Origin: a virus
Lineage: Duplodnaviria; Heunggongvirae; Uroviricota; Caudoviricetes
Virus record (IMG/VR): IMGVR_UViG_2609459830_000018
Span: 1 to 4,217 of that record
DNA: 4,217 nucleotides
Reading direction: 5' to 3' (one strand)
The translations under genes and the position numbers were made by a program. A model generated the notes under the pieces. It did no database searches, was not told the origin of the DNA, and saw only the letters and a list, made by a program, of their open reading frames with translations. Numbering within the stretch: the first letter of the stretch is position 1; every line of letters begins with the position of its first letter. Below are positions 1-4,217 of this stretch, in pieces.

Positions 1-280
<280 letters not shown>

Positions 281-513
281 CCACTACACTTTTCAGCGTG
301 GGTTATTGAAGCCTGCAGAAGAAGGCTGGCAACAGATGCAACGCATCTGCGTACGGCCAGCATGACAAATAACGAGAAATGAACGTTCGGTTACAGGAGC
401 AGGTACCCACTGTCCTCCAACAATATTTCATCTTCATACCCGGCGGAACAAGACTTACCCAGCCGGGATGTACAGAATAACAACAGAGTGATAATTAATT
501 TCTGATGAAATAA

Positions 514-840
514 TCAGGGTGCAGAAGGACTAAAGATAAACGTTTTCTTCACGCCTTTACGCGGCCTGTCCTTCTCAAATCGCCATTTTGCCATCGCCTT
601 TACAACCTGCTCATCAAACAGATGGTGCGGCTCTGAACGGATAAACTCAATTCGGGTGACAGTACCATCAGCACCAATATCAAACTTCACATCAACCCGT
701 CCCTTTATATAATTTGCCGCTGCATAGGCCGGATATTGTGGTAATGCCTTCACCAATTGTCGGGGCATATCTGTTTTATGTTGCGTACAGCCCATAACCA
801 GAGAAGACAACAAAATAATTAACGGAAGATTTCTTTTCAT
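514..840 (-). CDS. Outer-membrane lipoprotein consisting of a TonB C-terminal-domain-like fold (about 108 aa)
   Basis: Minus-strand ORF. N-terminus MKRNLPLIILLSSLVMGC has a basic n-region, hydrophobic core and lipobox-like VMGC with Thr at +2. The mature part ...LPQYPAYAAANYIKGRVDVKFDIGADGTVTRIEFIRSEPHHLFDEQVVKAMAKWRFE matches the remembered TonB_C motif pattern (YP..A....I.G.V.V.F.I...G.V.......S.......D..V..A...WRF). Start chosen at ATG 840 (GGGAA 5 nt upstream); in-frame alternatives are ATG 846 and GTG 855. Confidence 0.65.
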   Translation of the reverse strand: MKRNLPLIILLSSLVMGCTQHKTDMPRQLVKALPQYPAYAAANYIKGRVDVKFDIGADGTVTRIEFIRSEPHHLFDEQVVKAMAKWRFEKDRPRKGVKKTFIFSPSAP

Positions 841-856
841 TTTCATTCCCGGCACA

Positions 857-877
857 GATAAGAATAAGTCTTATTCT
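857..877 (-). promoter_or_regulatory. Perfect AT-rich dyad (AGAATAAG-T-CTTATTCT, 861-877) overlapping a candidate -10 (TAGAAT, minus strand 878..873) just upstream of the lipoprotein gene; possible operator, loosely Fur-box-like
   Basis: Directly visible 8-1-8 perfect inverted repeat 11-31 nt upstream of the start codon. By hand alignment the 19 nt at 857-875 (GATAAGAATAAGTCTTATT) match the Fur consensus GATAATGATAATCATTATC at 13 of 19 positions. The -35 is weak. Confidence 0.35.
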
Positions 878-1178
878 AACAATGCCACCCTGTCGGTCAT
901 CAATCCTCTGCTTGATGGCAACGACAATTATCCGACTTAAATCACAAATCAGACACATAACAGGGCTTGCGAGGTAACACATCGTCCGGCTTCTTCCACC
1001 ATCGCACCGGACAGGCGACTATGAGGGGCAACGCCGCGCTCCGTTAACGCGGTAAACCCCGGTGTGTATCGTTTTTGATTATCCCCGCACACTCGCGAAG
1101 AGGAGTCTCCCGGTCGGGCTGCGGTCTCTGTTAATGCGGGAATACGGCGACAATACCGCGCATGGATAATAAGGTCGC

Positions 1179-1403
1179 TCAACACACTGGCTGTAATGCA
1201 GCGGATACCATGCGGCATTTAGCGGCATTCATCGTACACTCAACGGTTAGCTCTTCATTCGTGGCATTCACCTGAAAGGTCCGGGAGTGTAATTGCGTAC
1301 ATTTACCACTGAACGAACCTTCAACAAGAACACGACCACGCTGCAAAATACGGAACAGAATTGTTCCCTGAAAAGGCTTTACGGTTACCAGTAATTTCTT
1401 CAT
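1179..1403 (-). CDS. Hypothetical 74-aa protein, translationally coupled to Rz (ATGA overlap)
   Basis: ATG at 1403..1401 overlaps the Rz TGA stop (1402..1400). GGAGGA sits immediately upstream. No hydrophobic segment and no domain I recognise. Confidence 0.45.
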
Positions 1404-1900
1404 ATATCCTCCGGATAATAAAAAGCCAGCTTAGTGCACTGAGTGCGGATATATTCCTGCGCCCCTTCCAGCTGCTTCTGCATTGTCATCAACCGTTCTC
1501 TGAGGATGAAATAATCCCGTTCAGCGGTGTCTGCCAGTCGGGGGCCGGTTGCATTATCCACGCCGGAGGTGGTGGGGGCTTCACGCACGGAGCCTGGACA
1601 GGTGGCGTTGATCCGCAGGCGCTTACGACCAGCGGCAACGTCAGCGCGAAGAGTTTCATTTTCAGCTCTCGCATCGGCTAATTCCCTCGAGTATTTTGCA
1701 TCGAGCGCAGCAACATCGCGCTGGCGCACCTGCATATCAGTAATGGTTGCGTTCGCCAGCTTCAGTTCACTGGCTTTGTTATCGCGCTGCGCTTTGTAGG
1801 TAATCGCGTTATCACGGTAATGGTCTGTTGCCATCCACAGCGCACCACAGGCCACCAGCAGAATAACGATAAACGCGGAAAGCATTCGGTTTATGTTCAC
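1400..1900 (-). CDS. Rz: i-spanin (Rz), inner-membrane spanin subunit
   Basis: Translation ...[45 protein letters not shown]...VAAGRKRL...[34 protein letters not shown]... is near-collinear with lambda Rz as I remember it. N-terminal TM segment present. GTG start at 1900 overlaps the upstream ORF's TGA (GTGA); ATG 1885 is an alternative. Confidence 0.9.
1489..1674 (-). CDS. Rz1: o-spanin (Rz1), outer-membrane lipoprotein, embedded in the +1 frame of Rz
   Basis: Translation [61 protein letters not shown] has a lipobox (VSAC) and the proline-rich [26 protein letters not shown] core characteristic of lambda Rz1. It lies entirely inside Rz in another frame, the classic embedded architecture. Confidence 0.9.
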
Positions 1901-2028
1901 CCCAGCAGCCCCGACGAAGACAACATCATCCAGGCCATGGAAAGAAAAAGAGCAACCAGCATTAGTGAAAATGAAATGCCGACAATTACACAGAGGATCT
2001 TCGCCAGCGTTATGAGTTTGTCTGACAT
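1897..2028 (-). CDS. Small single-pass membrane protein (43 aa), function unknown
   Basis: ATG 2028..2026 is preceded by a strong SD (GGAGGA, 6-nt spacer). The stop TGA overlaps the Rz GTG start. Product [43 protein letters not shown] is dominated by one hydrophobic helix. Confidence 0.55.
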
Positions 2029-2042
2029 GCTTAATCCTCCCT

Positions 2043-2225
2043 TCACGATTTCAACGCAATGACCAGTTTTGCCAGCCCATACAGCATCGGGGACACAGCA
2101 ACACCGACCGCCACCCACTTAATGGCAAAAGCCAGTGCTCTGCTGATGTCATCAGTTACAGGCGCTTTCAGTTCAAGGCCGTTTTTCATGGTCAACCTCA
2201 ACAGAATTCGTTTATACTTCGCCAT
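2043..2225 (-). CDS. Small membrane protein (60 aa) with basic N-terminal region and C-terminal hydrophobic helix, function unknown
   Basis: ATG 2225..2223 is preceded by AGGGAG. Product [60 protein letters not shown]. Stop is 14 nt upstream of the next gene's start. Confidence 0.5.
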
Positions 2226-2258
2226 GTTCTCCCTTGCCTTACTCAAGGTCAGAAACAC

Positions 2259-2296
2259 AAAACCCCGCTTGGTGCCAACAAACGGGGTTTTTACTT
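2259..2296. terminator. Bidirectional rho-independent terminator between the endolysin gene and the small membrane protein genes
   Basis: AAAACCCCG (2259-2267) pairs with CGGGGTTTT (2283-2291), with an inner TTGG/CCAA pairing. It is followed by a T-run on the plus strand (TTTTTACTTTTATT) and on the minus strand (TTTTGTGTTTCT). Confidence 0.6.
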
Positions 2297-2381
2297 TTAT
2301 TCACTTACGTTTCGCCAGTTCGCAGGATTTCATGTTATCCGCCCGCGTGGCCATGCCTTATTTTTCAGCAAAATATTCTGC

Positions 2382-2915
2382 TTATCTGTCGATACCCCAG
2401 CACGCCAGCGCGCTCTCCTGGTCACGACGGGATACCTGACCGTAGCAGTTGTTTGAACGAATACGGCAGTCTCTGCCACCGTCCTTAATCCACCAGCGAA
2501 TCGCCTCACATGCTCCCCTGCGATCACCAGCATTAATTCGTCTGTAAAACGTCGACGGGAAACACTTACCGGGACCAATGTTGTACGGACAGAATGACGC
2601 GATCCCCGCTTTCTGGGGTTCGGTCAATGGCACTTTGATGTTTTTCTCCACCCATGCCAGCGCCTTATCACGTTCGATGGCGTTAACCTGGTCGCATTTC
2701 TCCTTCGACAACTTCATGCCCGGGACGACAGGTTTACCATCCACCAGAATGGCACCGCGACAGATGGTCCAGATACCCGCGCCATCACGGTATGCCGTGG
2801 TGTGGTTACCTTCCTTTTCATCCAGAAACTGGTCGAGAATGTCAGGCGCAGGCGCACCAGCGGCAATCAGCGCCAGAACGGCAGCCGACAGGCCGTATTT
2901 GATTTTGGTGTTCAT
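2382..2915 (-). CDS. R: Phage lysozyme (T4-lysozyme-like muramidase) with N-terminal SAR (signal-anchor-release) type domain
   Basis: N-terminus MNTKIKYGLSAAVLALIAAGAPAPD is a Gly/Ala-rich weakly hydrophobic segment. Catalytic-triad context E..(8)..D..(5)..T is present in EGNHTTAYRDGAGIWTICRG. Overall collinearity with P1 Lyz / phage 21 R type endolysins as remembered. Paired with a pinholin upstream. Confidence 0.88.
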   Translation of the reverse strand: MNTKIKYGLSAAVLALIAAGAPAPDILDQFLDEKEGNHTTAYRDGAGIWTICRGAILVDGKPVVPGMKLSKEKCDQVNAIERDKALAWVEKNIKVPLTEPQKAGIASFCPYNIGPGKCFPSTFYRRINAGDRRGACEAIRWWIKDGGRDCRIRSNNCYGQVSRRDQESALACWGIDR

Positions 2916-2951
2916 GGATATATTAAATATTCAGCCGCTGTCCCTGGCCCA

Positions 2952-3509
2952 CTAAATACGCACTTTAAGATAAGTCAGCCCCGGATGAAGCCAGTAAGCC
3001 GGCACTTTTTTAAAGGGGGGAGTATTAAAATCACGAAGAAGAGCCTCCCGCACAATTGCATCCTTATCAGCACCACTGGCCAGCGCTTCAATCTCAGCGG
3101 CTACCTGAAGATATCCCATGCAACGGCCAACGCGCTTCATCAGCCCCTGCTTTTTATTGTTCTTCAGGTAATCAATGGCAAATTCAATGAGCTCCTCACT
3201 GTGCTGGTGCAATGGAGGTGTTACTTTCCCATTTTCTGAGATGGTTATTTTCCCGGCATCACCGGATACAACAAAGGATGGCCGGTTACACTCCCATTCC
3301 AGGTTACTGAAATTATCATTATGAATACTGAAACACTCTGAGAGATTTCTGCTCATCACTTTCCGACAATAATCGTCAAACGCAGCAAACTGCTCATCGC
3401 GGCGTTTTTTTTCATCTTCAGAAGGCATCAGCGTCGACAGTTTTTTATTCAGTTCAGCAATTTCATTTTCCAGACGACTGAAGCGCTGATTCATTTCTTC
3501 ATGGTTCAT
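2952..3509 (-). CDS. Hypothetical soluble protein (about 185 aa) inserted between holin and endolysin genes
   Basis: ATG 3509..3507 has GGGGAG 8 nt upstream. The ORF begins 4 nt after the holin stop and ends 36 nt before the endolysin start. N-terminal about 45 residues are charged and heptad-like (coiled-coil-like). No TM segment or signal peptide by eye. No family recognised. Confidence 0.6.
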   Translation of the reverse strand: MNHEEMNQRFSRLENEIAELNKKLSTLMPSEDEKKRRDEQFAAFDDYCRKVMSRNLSECFSIHNDNFSNLEWECNRPSFVVSGDAGKITISENGKVTPPLHQHSEELIEFAIDYLKNNKKQGLMKRVGRCMGYLQVAAEIEALASGADKDAIVREALLRDFNTPPFKKVPAYWLHPGLTYLKVRI

Positions 3510-3512
3510 CAC

Positions 3513-3719
3513 CTAATCTCCCCGGGCAGCCTTGCGACGGTCCTCTCTGATTTTGAAATACAGGTTAGTCAGATACGTCAGCAGGCCAAACAGCAGACTC
3601 CCCAGCACACCTATCGCCACCCACTGGGACGGAGAGACTTTGTCCAGCAGCTGCAGTAACCAGTATCCCGTCCCCACCGCTGACGTGGTGTATGACACAC
3701 CCGTTGTGATTTTTTCCAT
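3513..3719 (-). CDS. S: Class II holin (pinholin), phage-21 S-like
   Basis: Product [68 protein letters not shown] (68 aa, two hydrophobic segments, charged C-tail) is near-identical in pattern to the S21/EssD pinholin as I remember it. Sits directly upstream of the lysozyme and spanins. Confidence 0.85.
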
Positions 3720-3764
3720 CTGATGTATGTCTCCGTCACCGCCGACAGAAAATGAAAGTAAAGG

Positions 3765-3799
3765 AAAACAAAAAGCCGCCAGTGTCGCCCACTGACGGC
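3765..3799 (-). terminator. tR'-like rho-independent terminator in the late leader upstream of the holin
   Basis: On the minus strand GCCGTCAGTG-ggcga-CACTGGCGGC (10-bp stem with one G-U pair) is followed by TTTTTGTTTTCC, about 45 nt upstream of the holin ATG. The position matches the lambdoid pR'-tR'-S arrangement. Confidence 0.55.
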
Positions 3800-3863
3800 C
3801 AACGCCGGGAGCCGTGATTATGGCATTCAGGCTCTGCTAAAAATGCCAGATAACATTCCGGCT

Positions 3864-3872
3864 CCCCCCCCC
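3864..3872. repeat. Homopolymeric C9 (G9 on the coding strand of the late operon) tract in the late leader
   Basis: Nine consecutive C residues read directly from the sequence, between the candidate late promoter and the tR'-like terminator. Confidence 0.9.
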
Positions 3873-3880
3873 TGATTCAG

Positions 3881-3907
3881 GTTATAAATGACACAATATC
3901 TTGACAA
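3881..3907 (-). promoter_or_regulatory. Candidate late promoter (pR'-like): -35 TTGTCA (3907..3902), -10 TATAAC (3886..3881), 15-nt spacer
   Basis: Best sigma70-like hexamer pair on the minus strand between the upstream ORF and the tR'-like terminator. The spacer is short, so the assignment is weak. Confidence 0.25.
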
Positions 3908-3977
3908 CACCCATCACTGTCTGTCAGAAAATGTACTGCCAGATATAAGTATCATGTGAAACCCAACTATCCTTCTT

Positions 3978-4020
3978 AGCCAGTACTTCTCCGACGAAAG
4001 TCAGTACTGGCTGTTTTTTT
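3978..4020 (+). terminator. Plus-strand rho-independent terminator facing into the 3' end of the upstream minus-strand ORF
   Basis: AGCCAGTACT (3978-3987) pairs with AGTACTGGCT (4003-4012), a perfect 10-bp stem with 15-nt loop, followed by G+T7 (4013-4020). The minus-strand side lacks a T-run. Confidence 0.5.
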
Positions 4021-4021
4021 A

Positions 4022-4217
4022 TTATGCTGCCGGTGCATTTATCTCCAGCACCAGACTTTCTATCTCAACGCCATACGCTGCATTTTTTGTAACATCCGTC
4101 AGCGTCAGCGCATTCAGCCCCAGTGTCAGACTGTCTTTTATAACCTGGAATGCCGGGCCAGCCACTCCATTCAGTTTCGGAGTAACCGTGGCACTGCCGG
4201 CGGTGAACACCAGCTCC
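4022..4217 (-). CDS. 3' end of an unidentified protein-coding gene (continues beyond the right edge of the window)
   Basis: Minus-strand frame is open to the window edge, ending ...ELVFTAGSATVTPKLNGVAGPAFQVIKDSLTLGLNALTLTDVTKNAAYGVEIESLVLEINAPAA with stop TAA at 4024..4022. Composition is protein-like and rich in small/beta-favouring residues. It does not look like a Cys-rich Q antiterminator tail. Confidence 0.4.
   Translation of the reverse strand, partial: ELVFTAGSATVTPKLNGVAGPAFQVIKDSLTLGLNALTLTDVTKNAAYGVEIESLVLEINAPAA

Follow-up and report, generated by a model that had tools for sequence, protein, structure and literature searches.

A bidirectional terminator hairpin and two tiny membrane-peptide genes as late-operon cargo between the endolysin and spanin genes of an Escherichia coli lambdoid prophage

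We analyzed a stretch of 4,217 nt (the window) that corresponds to positions 1 to 4,217 of IMG/VR record IMGVR_UViG_2609459830_000018 (Caudoviricetes). The host replicon is an E. coli lambdoid prophage, and the module described here is cargo within its late (lysis) operon: a hairpin able to terminate transcription both ways, and, behind it, a compact chain of genes that encode tiny inner-membrane peptides. The gene order on the minus strand is S21-type pinholin, a 186-aa ORF, SAR endolysin, hairpin, ORF-A, ORF-B and Rz/Rz1. An earlier note, made from the sequence of the window, had described a lysis cassette that departs from the canonical layout, and all of the elements that it named are present on the minus strand. 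The features of interest are:

2382–2915, minus strand: SAR endolysin R (Pfam Phage_lysozyme, E = 1e-24), the upstream neighbor of the slot
2259–2291, minus strand: intrinsic-terminator hairpin AAAACCCCG...CGGGGTTTT (terminator scan and folding), the 5' boundary of the small-gene module
2189–2218, plus strand: candidate antisense sigma-70 promoter TGGTCA-18-TATACT (promoter scan), inside ORF-A codons 3–13
2043–2225, minus strand: ORF-A, long form, 60 aa (ORF list; RefSeq WP_001151823.1; phrog_1115, E = 3e-42)
2043–2189, minus strand: possible short form of ORF-A, 48 aa, with a putative start at Met13 (MKNGLE...) and a separate Shine-Dalgarno (SD) sequence, GAGG, 6 nt upstream
1897–2028, minus strand: ORF-B, 43 aa, predicted N-in single-pass membrane peptide (ORF list; RefSeq WP_001280932.1; phrog_4906, E = 2e-23)
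1894–1900, minus strand: GGGGTGA junction (from the sequence), where the ORF-B stop TGA overlaps a candidate GTG start of Rz
1400–1900, minus strand: Rz i-spanin (PF03245, Pfam E = 3e-49), the downstream partner of the chain
1489–1674, minus strand: Rz1, embedded in Rz (Pfam E = 1e-21)

ORF-A extends from an ATG at 2225 to a stop at 2043 and ORF-B from an ATG at 2028 to a stop at 1897. Both are preceded by a good SD, as had been proposed: AAGGGAG just 3 nt from the ATG of ORF-A, and GGGAGGA 7 nt upstream of ORF-B. Hydropathy and flank charges indicate that both are membrane peptides, each with a single long predicted helix. The transmembrane segment of ORF-B (residues 11–29) is very hydrophobic (Kyte-Doolittle 2.9), and the earlier description of each product as essentially one hydrophobic helix suits this peptide; it does not suit ORF-A, in which basic, hydrophilic residues 1–24 (flank charge +5), disordered in an AlphaFold2 model, precede the helix formed by residues 25–59 (AlphaFold2), with a membrane core at 38–56 as judged by hydropathy.

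The family of ORF-A is small and confined to prophages of Enterobacteriaceae; its members share the pattern MKNGLE-x-DAPVT-x-EIS followed by one membrane helix. A profile search against 1.84 billion representatives returned 22 proteins, all of them from this family, and a scan of a genome collection with a single-sequence query returned no relatives. Judging from the sequences, ORF-A may be produced as long and short isoforms that start at Met1 and Met13, respectively. Met13 is at least 90% conserved across the family alignment, is preceded by GGAGG in divergent members and is the annotated start of many database entries, and the first ATG is missing in several members, where GTG or TTG is used instead.

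ORF-A and ORF-B are real genes, as the earlier note had supposed: RefSeq annotation as coding sequences (both “hypothetical”), PHROG matches and pN/pS values below 1 place them beyond chance. The pN/pS ratio is 0.07–0.36 for ORF-A, and 0.38 for ORF-B relative to its most divergent copy. Within ORF-B, the first 29 codons, which encode the membrane helix, are under purifying selection (pN/pS 0.14–0.46), with replacements that are conservative even at 55% synonymous divergence, and the C-terminal tail evolves near-neutrally; broken copies number 5 of 85. The same S21-R-A-B-Rz order was found in 67 fetched loci, so that conservation in related prophages, which the note had put forward as a check, is borne out.

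Roughly one in three complete E. coli genomes (1788 of 5426) carries both ORFs, at up to 11 places per genome, and ORF-B was found in 276 sequenced phage records, mostly of Stx phages, in most of which it is unannotated. The R-Rz junction is a variable slot that holds differing mixes of mini-membrane-peptide genes or, in Stx-type prophages, an antirepressor gene (ant), and its content has undergone shuffling, truncation and, in some cases, frameshifts. The K-12 Qin genes rrrQ and rzpQ overlap directly and have none of the small ORFs between them; the module is hence inserted between genes that are adjacent in a related phage. The lambda cassette, likewise, is not known to contain these small genes. 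Since cassettes without ORF-A and ORF-B exist and work, any role of the two peptides must be dispensable. Small proteins of K-12 Qin (YnfS and others) were considered as counterparts, and proved to be different genes in other places.

The hairpin has a stem of 13 bp and is followed by a T-run on both strands. On folding, the sense orientation reaches −18.9 kcal/mol (z = −3.6) and the antisense orientation −15.7 kcal/mol (z = −3.2), and the antisense-side T-run is at least equal to that of the sense side, being clearly better in loci L086 and L096. The terminator scan, the folding of both strands and the two T-runs thus bear out the earlier claim of a bidirectional terminator between R and Rz, as a prediction. 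In related loci, compensatory changes preserve the stem at 3 of 10 consensus pairs. The hairpin accompanies the ORF-A family in all contexts examined, namely cassettes with four different holin types, where ORF-A lies between the endolysin and Rz genes, as well as sites after tail-fibre genes and at prophage ends, and in every one of these contexts it lies 30–60 nt upstream of the first small ORF. ORF-A and the hairpin accordingly move as a unit between intergenic sites of late operons. A second small hairpin that would mask the first SD in the window is not conserved in L083 or L100 and was dropped. No Rfam family matched above threshold in the window; a rimP-leader hit on the plus strand (2227–2301; 25.6 bits versus a gathering score of 47) is most likely the terminator hairpin.

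At the other end of the module, the GGGGTGA junction recurs in 65 of 67 scored copies. The overlap from which the earlier note had deduced translational coupling of ORF-B to Rz is therefore present, whereas the coupling itself is likely but not certain, because RefSeq places the Rz start at a later ATG, 15 nt further downstream (window 1885). In E2348/69, the junction feeds another downstream gene, A'. ORF-B adjoins Rz downstream of A, X or ant cargo, among others in Sakai Sp9 (ECs_5722) and in the 276 phage genomes, and it directly precedes Rz whichever cargo lies upstream; P27-like cassettes keep ORF-B though Rz does not follow.

The pinholin of the window has no in-frame start upstream of its ATG and lacks a dual start, as had been noted, and on this ground the peptides had been suggested to act as an antiholin in trans. 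This rationale is not supported. Among 80 fetched loci with a readable holin, 69 carry an M-x-x-M dual-start pinholin and 11 the start-less form of the window. ORF-A also follows endolysins paired with an HP1-type holin (PF16080) or a lambda-S-type holin (PF05106), and the endolysin of a two-holin/M15-peptidase cassette; after tail-fibre genes, it lies away from any holin. A constant link to one cognate holin, as for the separate-gene antiholins P1 LydB, P2 LysA and T4 RI, is thus not seen for ORF-A.

Nor was homology to holin or antiholin families, for which the earlier note had proposed a search, detectable for either peptide: with an E cutoff of 0.1, Pfam holin families gave no match for either ORF; with one of 10, these families, PF04971 included, gave none among 17 ORF-A family members; and ORF-B could not be aligned to S21. 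Neither peptide combines a membrane segment with a highly charged C-terminal domain in the manner of a holin, the C-terminal flanks being ALKS (+1) in ORF-A and 14 residues of charge 0 in ORF-B. A BLASTP match of ORF-A to pinholin TMD2 covers 16 residues (E = 0.001 for that single pair); comparison of the two families with hhalign gave a probability of 0.9% (E = 0.058, 11 columns), and we regard the match as short and compositional. A database chimera (P0119) that appeared to link ORF-A to the pinholin, and fusion proteins of ORF-B and A', are artefacts of gene calling on variant or frameshifted loci.

A consensus scan, which may miss a weak or unusual promoter, returned no minus-strand promoter-like site near 2225–2420, and no sense promoter was found between R and ORF-A either in the window or at the equivalent place of five other loci. 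Expression is therefore probably by way of Q-antiterminated late transcription. We tentatively propose that ORF-A and ORF-B are late-expressed membrane peptides that serve as non-essential tuners of lysis, carried as late-operon cargo, a reading that we hold to be possible rather than probable. With no sense promoter between the hairpin and ORF-A, both genes would be silent in the lysogen, and they would be transcribed solely when Q-modified RNA polymerase passes the hairpin during lytic growth. Ribosomes finishing ORF-B would use the overlapping GTGA to reinitiate on Rz. The two peptides would enter the inner membrane in an N-in orientation, when and where the pinholin, the tethered SAR endolysin and the Rz anchor do so, and could there adjust: (i) the timing of depolarization, (ii) the timing of endolysin release or (iii) the amount or activity of the spanin; ORF-B may act chiefly via its link to Rz.

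Extra small membrane proteins have a precedent in lysis by pinholin and SAR endolysin. Lcc6 of the Shewanella prophage LambdaSo, a single-pass protein of ~65 aa with no known domain, is essential for lysis (bioRxiv 10.1101/2024.01.23.576932). LambdaSo resembles the phage considered here in being lambda-like with a pinholin and a SAR endolysin, and Lcc6 acts at the holin step. However, the membrane segment of Lcc6 is N-terminal and precedes a cytoplasmic tail of 43 aa, opposite to the order in ORF-A, and Lcc6 is encoded far from the lysis genes; the profile search, which gave ORF-A relatives alone, revealed no relation in sequence. The Mu releasin gp25 (DUF2730) is membrane-tethered and acts on SAR endolysins with basic residues in a short cytoplasmic N-terminus (PMC9239132). 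The endolysin of the window, the N-terminal segment of which is weakly hydrophobic and rich in Gly, Ala and Ser as judged by hydropathy, likewise starts MNTKIKYG, but the releasin is longer and anchored at its N-terminus, DUF2730 gave no match here, ORF-A has no N-terminal anchor followed by a cytoplasmic domain, and ORF-A also accompanies endolysins without a SAR domain. P2 LysA is an extra membrane protein that alters lysis timing; its gene directly follows that of the endolysin and lies between the endolysin and spanin genes. P1 LydD, another extra membrane protein, is encoded by the endolysin operon, immediately downstream of the endolysin gene, and alters lysis timing as well (PMC9025707). 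Both LydD and LysA differ from the present peptides in being larger and multi-pass or holin-like, with no sequence similarity detected to ORF-A or ORF-B.

Lysis of the host by holin, endolysin and spanin is a textbook pathway of lambdoid phages that is usually treated as complete, and Mu releasin and LambdaSo Lcc6 illustrate that unrecognised small membrane proteins can be lysis factors, essential in those two cases. The peptide family described here lies inside the lysis cassette of roughly one in three complete E. coli genomes, and ORF-B, mostly unannotated, directly precedes the spanin gene of hundreds of Shiga-toxin phages. Should the peptides alter the timing of lysis or the output of spanin, they would affect burst size as well as when and how much Stx is released; should they prove to be exclusion or toxin modules, they would represent a common, overlooked class of prophage cargo.

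Observations that speak against lysis tuning are the absence of homology to any lysis protein, the occurrence of ORF-A relatives at a distance from lysis genes, either behind tail-fibre genes or at prophage ends, and the near-neutral tail of ORF-B. Accessory cargo also accounts better for the shuffled, truncated and frameshifted content of the slot than a finely adjusted part of the lysis machinery would. A second, more doubtful explanation is that the genes are lysogen-benefit morons, encoding inner-membrane superinfection-exclusion or host-modifying peptides in permissive late-operon slots. HK97 gp15 is an inner-membrane moron that blocks DNA entry, lambda bor is a moron of a lambdoid phage, and a classical moron comprises a promoter of its own, located upstream, and a terminator on the downstream side. 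The module resembles these in being inserted between genes adjacent in related phages, bounded by a terminator and exchanged among phages. The alternative presence of an antirepressor gene in the R-Rz slot is classic moron behavior, and the terminator flanking of ORF-A relatives after tail-fibre genes and at prophage ends, the high copy number and the shuffled modules point the same way. In contrast to a classical moron, however, the terminator here lies upstream and an upstream sigma-70 promoter of the module's own was not found. One or two terminators stand directly upstream, and a sense promoter between hairpin and start codon is absent in every context, so that expression of a moron from the repressed prophage is hard to explain. 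PADLOC at E up to 1 matched neither ORF-A nor ORF-B, nor the related mini-ORFs X, Y, Z and W or the neighboring ORFs without an assigned function, and the constant position of ORF-B before Rz, where stop and start codons overlap or lie close together, would not be expected of an exclusion gene.

It is unlikely that the module is a switch like those of type I toxin-antitoxin systems. In such a switch, ORF-A would be a membrane toxin, and a cis-antisense RNA of ~75 nt would mask its translation start in lysogens; massive late transcription would titrate this RNA, and the peptide, once made, would aid killing or lysis. The RNA is predicted from the candidate plus-strand promoter and would cover roughly 2226–2300, spanning the ORF-A ribosome-binding site and ending at the hairpin, where the antisense-side T-run is at least as good as the sense one. 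A promoter-like match with the TATACT −10 element recurs at the homologous place in a Salmonella locus (L091) and in a tail-fibre context (L086), is kept in L100 and is improved to TTGTCA-18-TATACT in L101; still, the promoter has 9 of 12 consensus matches, about chance level per window. Folding of plus-strand 2226–2305 gives z = −3.2. Synonymous divergence is two to three times lower in ORF-A codons 3–19 than in codons 20–60, a comparison of small counts (2–3 synonymous changes), and the conserved block also contains the Met13 start and its SD, which may be the cause of the conservation.

The ORF-A peptide is small, hydrophobic, multicopy and tandem-duplicated, and the sizes of the two products (60 or 48 aa, and 43 aa), with one membrane segment each, suit type I toxins, which are below about 60 aa. 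Neither peptide, however, matched the toxin families Hok, Ldr, TisB, Ibs, ShoB, Zor or DinQ in Pfam or NCBIfam, an Rfam family for the RNA is lacking, and the toxin mRNA would have no promoter of its own. The closest parallel is hokW-sokW of Sakai prophage Sp5, in which a small membrane peptide aids phage-induced lysis and is repressed by an antisense RNA (PMC8621323). With the hairpin and the predicted antisense promoter, the arrangement here would be comparable, but ORF-A has no similarity to Hok, its antisense RNA is predicted, and it lies without its own promoter inside a late operon. The Sakai Hfq-crosslink table (PMC4104026) comprises 63 peaks; none of the three for which positions were looked up (EcOnc33, EcOnc12 and EcOnc03) lies in an R-Rz slot. 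The two cassettes inspected, those of Sp6 and Sp9, contain ant and ORF-B but neither the hairpin nor ORF-A, and no ORF-A copy was located in Sakai, so that this comparison has no bearing on the predicted antisense RNA. A joint reading, to which we likewise give little credence, would make ORF-A a dual-start membrane peptide locked in lysogens by a cis-antisense RNA and ORF-B a co-translated controller of the i-spanin. The ORF-A unit may then be a portable toxin-switch plugged into late operons, sharpening or accelerating host killing, and the bidirectional hairpin may double as the terminator of the antisense RNA.

ORF-B could also be mainly a translational device, an inactive leader that would bring ribosomes to Rz after cargo broke an ancestral R-Rz overlap, which we consider a rather remote explanation. 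The direct overlap of R and Rz in Qin agrees with it, as do the near-neutral C-terminal tail and the position of ORF-B between cargo and Rz wherever cargo is inserted, the stop and start codons again overlapping or lying close together. A leader would have no need, though, of a conserved 26-residue hydrophobic helix or of purifying selection on the first 29 codons, and would not be expected to be retained in P27-like cassettes, where Rz does not follow it.

Finally, it is very improbable that the peptides are trans-acting antiholins that would bind TMD2 or TMD1 of the S21-type pinholin, delay triggering and replace the S21-71 isoform: the start-less pinholin of the window, the M-Y-Q extension of the pinholin in most relatives, without the Lys that makes S21-71 inhibitory, and the 16-residue BLASTP match argue for this, and the failed family-level alignment, the prevalence of dual-start pinholins beside the pair and the occurrence of ORF-A with three other holin families, or with no holin nearby, argue against it.

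Across Pfam, NCBIfam, PHROGs and PADLOC, the sole matches of the two peptides are PHROG families without an assigned function, and searches of the literature with the protein accessions, locus tags and PHROG identifiers returned nothing on either ORF. The ORF-A/ORF-B pair also occurs in phage records with laboratory strains in the host field.

The earlier note placed a bidirectional terminator and two tiny membrane-protein genes between the endolysin and spanin genes at 1897-2296, and this layout is correct with two amendments, which concern the hydropathy of ORF-A and the start of Rz. The features of the window are:

3800-3774, minus strand: terminator upstream of the holin (terminator scan)
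3719-3513, minus strand: S21-type pinholin, 68 aa (PF04971, E = 9e-33)
3512-2952, minus strand: 186-aa ORF of unknown function (phrog_1085)
2915-2382, minus strand: SAR endolysin, R (PF00959)
2291-2259, minus strand: hairpin (terminator scan and folding)
2225-2043, minus strand: ORF-A, 60 aa (ORF list, PHROG match)
2028-1897, minus strand: ORF-B, 43 aa (ORF list, PHROG match)
1900 or 1885 to 1400, minus strand: Rz (PF03245)
1674-1489, minus strand: Rz1, inside Rz (PF06085)
1403-1179, minus strand: 74-aa ORF overlapping the Rz stop (ORF list)
within 855-514, minus strand: TonB-C lipoprotein (domain search)
1-280, plus strand: tail of an IS3-family transposase (domain search)

Both small ORFs are genuine rather than spurious: they are annotated in RefSeq as hypothetical proteins, match PHROG families of unknown function (ORF-A, phrog_1115; ORF-B, phrog_4906), are under purifying selection and are widespread in E. 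coli. A 330-nt query spanning both matched 1788 of 5426 complete E. coli genomes, among them ATCC 25922, E2348/69, ST131 and O157:H7 strains, with at least 80% of the query covered in 1039 and up to 11 places in one genome. The pN/pS of ORF-A is 0.07-0.36 (19 synonymous and 14 non-synonymous differences from a Salmonella copy); for ORF-B it is 0.38 in comparison with the most divergent copy, where synonymous divergence reaches 0.55. Most of the queried stretch is found in seven phage records, four of them 96% identical over the full stretch; since their host fields read K-12, E. coli C or ECOR13, we take the module to be present in working phages. By tblastn, ORF-A occurs in only 12 phage records and ORF-B in 276, mainly Stx1- and Stx2-converting phages (e.g. 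vB_EcoP_24B and Min27); among the ORF-B matches listed, the majority of phage records have no gene annotated there.

The slot between R and Rz is variable, and the recurrence of the pair in related prophages, which the earlier note had named as a check, is evident from its arrangements (X, Y, Z and W, other mini-ORFs; A' and A'', ORF-A relatives; ant, antirepressor gene):

K-12 Qin: slot empty, R and Rz overlapping
Window and 67 fetched loci: hairpin-A-B
L094: hairpin-X-B
E2348/69: hairpin-X-B-A'-Y
L096: hairpin-Z-A''-W-Y
L095: ant-X-B
Sakai Sp9 (ECs_1785, ECs_5722, ECs_1786): ant-B

X, Y, Z and W likewise encode peptides of 28-49 aa with one helix each, Y being a shortened ORF-A relative (phrog_4493, E = 4e-6). 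The module of the window consists of a hairpin and tightly spaced small membrane-peptide genes, in a chain that ends in Rz/Rz1. The hairpin, AAAAC(C/G)CCG...CGGG(G/C)GTTTT, lies 30-60 nt 5' of the first small ORF in all contexts examined, and its stem is preserved through compensatory changes. On the antisense side its T-run is of the same quality as on the sense side, and of better quality in the related loci L086 and L096. Sakai Sp9 has an ant-type cassette, whose similarity to the window ends exactly at the hairpin start. A scan from the endolysin gene to ORF-A in the window and five other loci found no sense-strand promoter-like site, from which we infer that transcription of the small genes depends entirely on antiterminated late polymerase; ORF-A and ORF-B are probably expressed in the late phase only. 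The 3' untranslated region of the endolysin gene holds another conserved inverted repeat, 5' of the main hairpin (window about 2326-2348, minus strand, imperfect; L091 3857-3878); in Salmonella it reads GGCGGATAACA...AAATCCGCC.

We tentatively favor ORF-A and ORF-B as non-essential proteins that would tune lysis at the membrane; both probably lie N-in in the inner membrane. The functional explanations are not all mutually exclusive, and the two proteins may well have different roles. Among the defining traits looked for, a sequence relation to holins, releasin or known type I toxins, the steady linkage to one holin family expected of antiholins, and the upstream promoter of classical morons were not found. 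Phage lysis operons with accessory small membrane proteins are a known theme, which the module varies; it is real, widespread and so far unstudied. Its nearest functional precedents are Lcc6 of LambdaSo, Mu releasin, P1 LydD together with P2 LysA, and hokW-sokW of Sakai Sp5; ORF-A and ORF-B are unrelated in sequence to all of these. Searches of Pfam, NCBIfam and PADLOC gave no named family for ORF-A, ORF-B or the other mini-ORFs, and the 22 proteins that an ORF-A profile retrieved from 1.84 billion representatives all belong to its own family. The likeness between the ORF-A helix and pinholin TMD2 was not upheld by a profile-profile test.

That the pair is an exclusion-type or other moron seems somewhat unlikely; the contexts of ORF-A and the lack of a classical moron's upstream promoter bear on it. 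The ORF-A family is found between endolysin and Rz in S21 pinholin cassettes, in an HP1-type holin cassette of Salmonella (L091) and with a lambda-S-type holin and a non-SAR endolysin (L101). It also lies 3' of the endolysin in P27-like cassettes with two holins, an M15 peptidase and no Rz (L083 2778-2960; L085 2778-2960), 3' of tail-fibre genes, where an extra terminator precedes the hairpin, and at one prophage end. ORF-A is portable together with its hairpin. The P27-like cassettes further carry a 60-aa lipoprotein (LLAGC lipobox, phrog_7528) 3' of ORF-B and a 93-aa Cys-rich ORF (phrog_33497) 5' of ORF-A. Tandem ORF-A paralogues of 64 and 55 aa, 1 nt apart, follow a double terminator in L088 (3856-4168) and L089 (165-528); in L088 a DUF1353 gene comes next, at the prophage end.

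A type I toxin-like switch is unlikely, and no relation to known families of type I toxin was found; the observations closest to it concern the 5' part of ORF-A. The claim that each protein is essentially one hydrophobic helix fails for ORF-A, half of which is hydrophilic: a basic stretch (residues 1-24, flank charge +5), disordered in the AlphaFold2 model, is followed by a single helix (25-59) with the membrane core at 38-56. Met13 is conserved in at least 90% of the family and preceded by GAGG (GGAGG in divergent members), and Salmonella copies have GTG or TTG in place of the first ATG, yet the amino-acid pattern of the basic extension is still recognizable at 40-45% identity; translation may therefore begin at either start, to yield proteins of 60 and 48 aa. 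Codons 3-19, which hold the Met13 initiation region, show a synonymous divergence 2-3 times below that of codons 20-60, on small counts (2-3 versus 17-19 synonymous changes). Their opposite strand carries a promoter-like TGGTCA-18-TATACT, found again in L091, L086, L100 and L101. Together with the hairpin, this predicted promoter would yield a candidate antisense RNA of ~75 nt over the first ORF-A ribosome-binding site.

We regard a role of ORF-B as a pure translational leader as quite improbable: its codons 1-29 are constrained (pN/pS 0.14-0.46). The last 14 codons are nearly free to change, and 5 of 85 copies are frameshifted. ORF-B is constantly adjacent to Rz, directly 5' of it irrespective of the gene that precedes ORF-B. 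Its GTGA overlap with Rz, proposed earlier, stands as a junction, with GGGGTGA forming the last codons in 65 of the 67 scored copies; RefSeq places the Rz start at ATG 1885. GTG 1900 is probably the true start, because it yields MNINR..., similar to the MNR... with which other Rz alleles begin, and adds the positive charge expected ahead of a signal anchor. In related loci, ORF-B ends either in the overlapping GTG of Rz or with a Shine-Dalgarno sequence and ATG within 7-9 nt. In E2348/69 the GTGA starts A' instead, indicating that the overlap serves as a coupling device, and ORF-B is probably translationally coupled to Rz. In Sakai Sp9, where ORF-B (ECs_5722; L098 2327-2473) lies in an Stx-type cassette, the ant stop overlaps the ORF-B start (TGATG) and Rz follows 7 nt past the ORF-B stop, so that ant, ORF-B and Rz are linked in a single chain, with overlaps or short gaps between the genes. 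The 74-aa ORF (phrog_2571, unknown function), which overlaps the Rz stop via ATGA and agrees in position and length with a 225-nt hypothetical CDS of L001 (WP_000735651.1), is a further coupled member of the gene chain.

An S21-specific antiholin is very improbable. The earlier note correctly saw that the window pinholin lacks an upstream start, and proposed that the pair compensates; this is unsupported, since the pair mainly accompanies dual-start holins in the fetched loci (M-x-x-M in 69 of 80 readable holins, mostly MYQ-M) and ORF-A is not tied to pinholins, occurring with other holin types and in tail-fibre contexts. At 3720-3731 (minus strand) the window reads ATA CAT CAG ATG and most relatives ATG TAT CAG ATG, a MYQ-M dual start without Lys; the classical MKS-M occurs in a few. 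The window allele has lost its upstream start via a single ATG-to-ATA change.

Finally, the 186-aa ORF fills the pinholin-endolysin gap, beginning right after the holin stop, where close relatives have a 114-aa YdfR-family gene, which makes the S-R junction a second variable slot. The lipoprotein at 514-855, at the position of lambda's bor, is TonB_C by Pfam and NCBIfam; its PHROG label 'Rz-like spanin' (phrog_1267) looks doubtful. The C-terminal part of the transposase (rve_2/rve_3) occupies 1-280, the point from which intact relatives run on into YlcI/YnfO, HNH endonuclease and terminase genes, so an insertion sequence interrupts or truncates this prophage. Pas sRNAs (PasA/C/D1) reportedly adjoin the holin operon (bioRxiv 10.64898/2026.05.13.724894). 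Within 3720-4020, upstream of the pinholin, the 3800-3774 hairpin and one seen by eye, with a T-run, near 4015-3975 flank a spacer of ~170 nt; nine consecutive C (G on the minus strand) occupy about 3866-3874, and an ORF ending about 4022, just upstream, occupies the position of an esterase-family gene in relatives.
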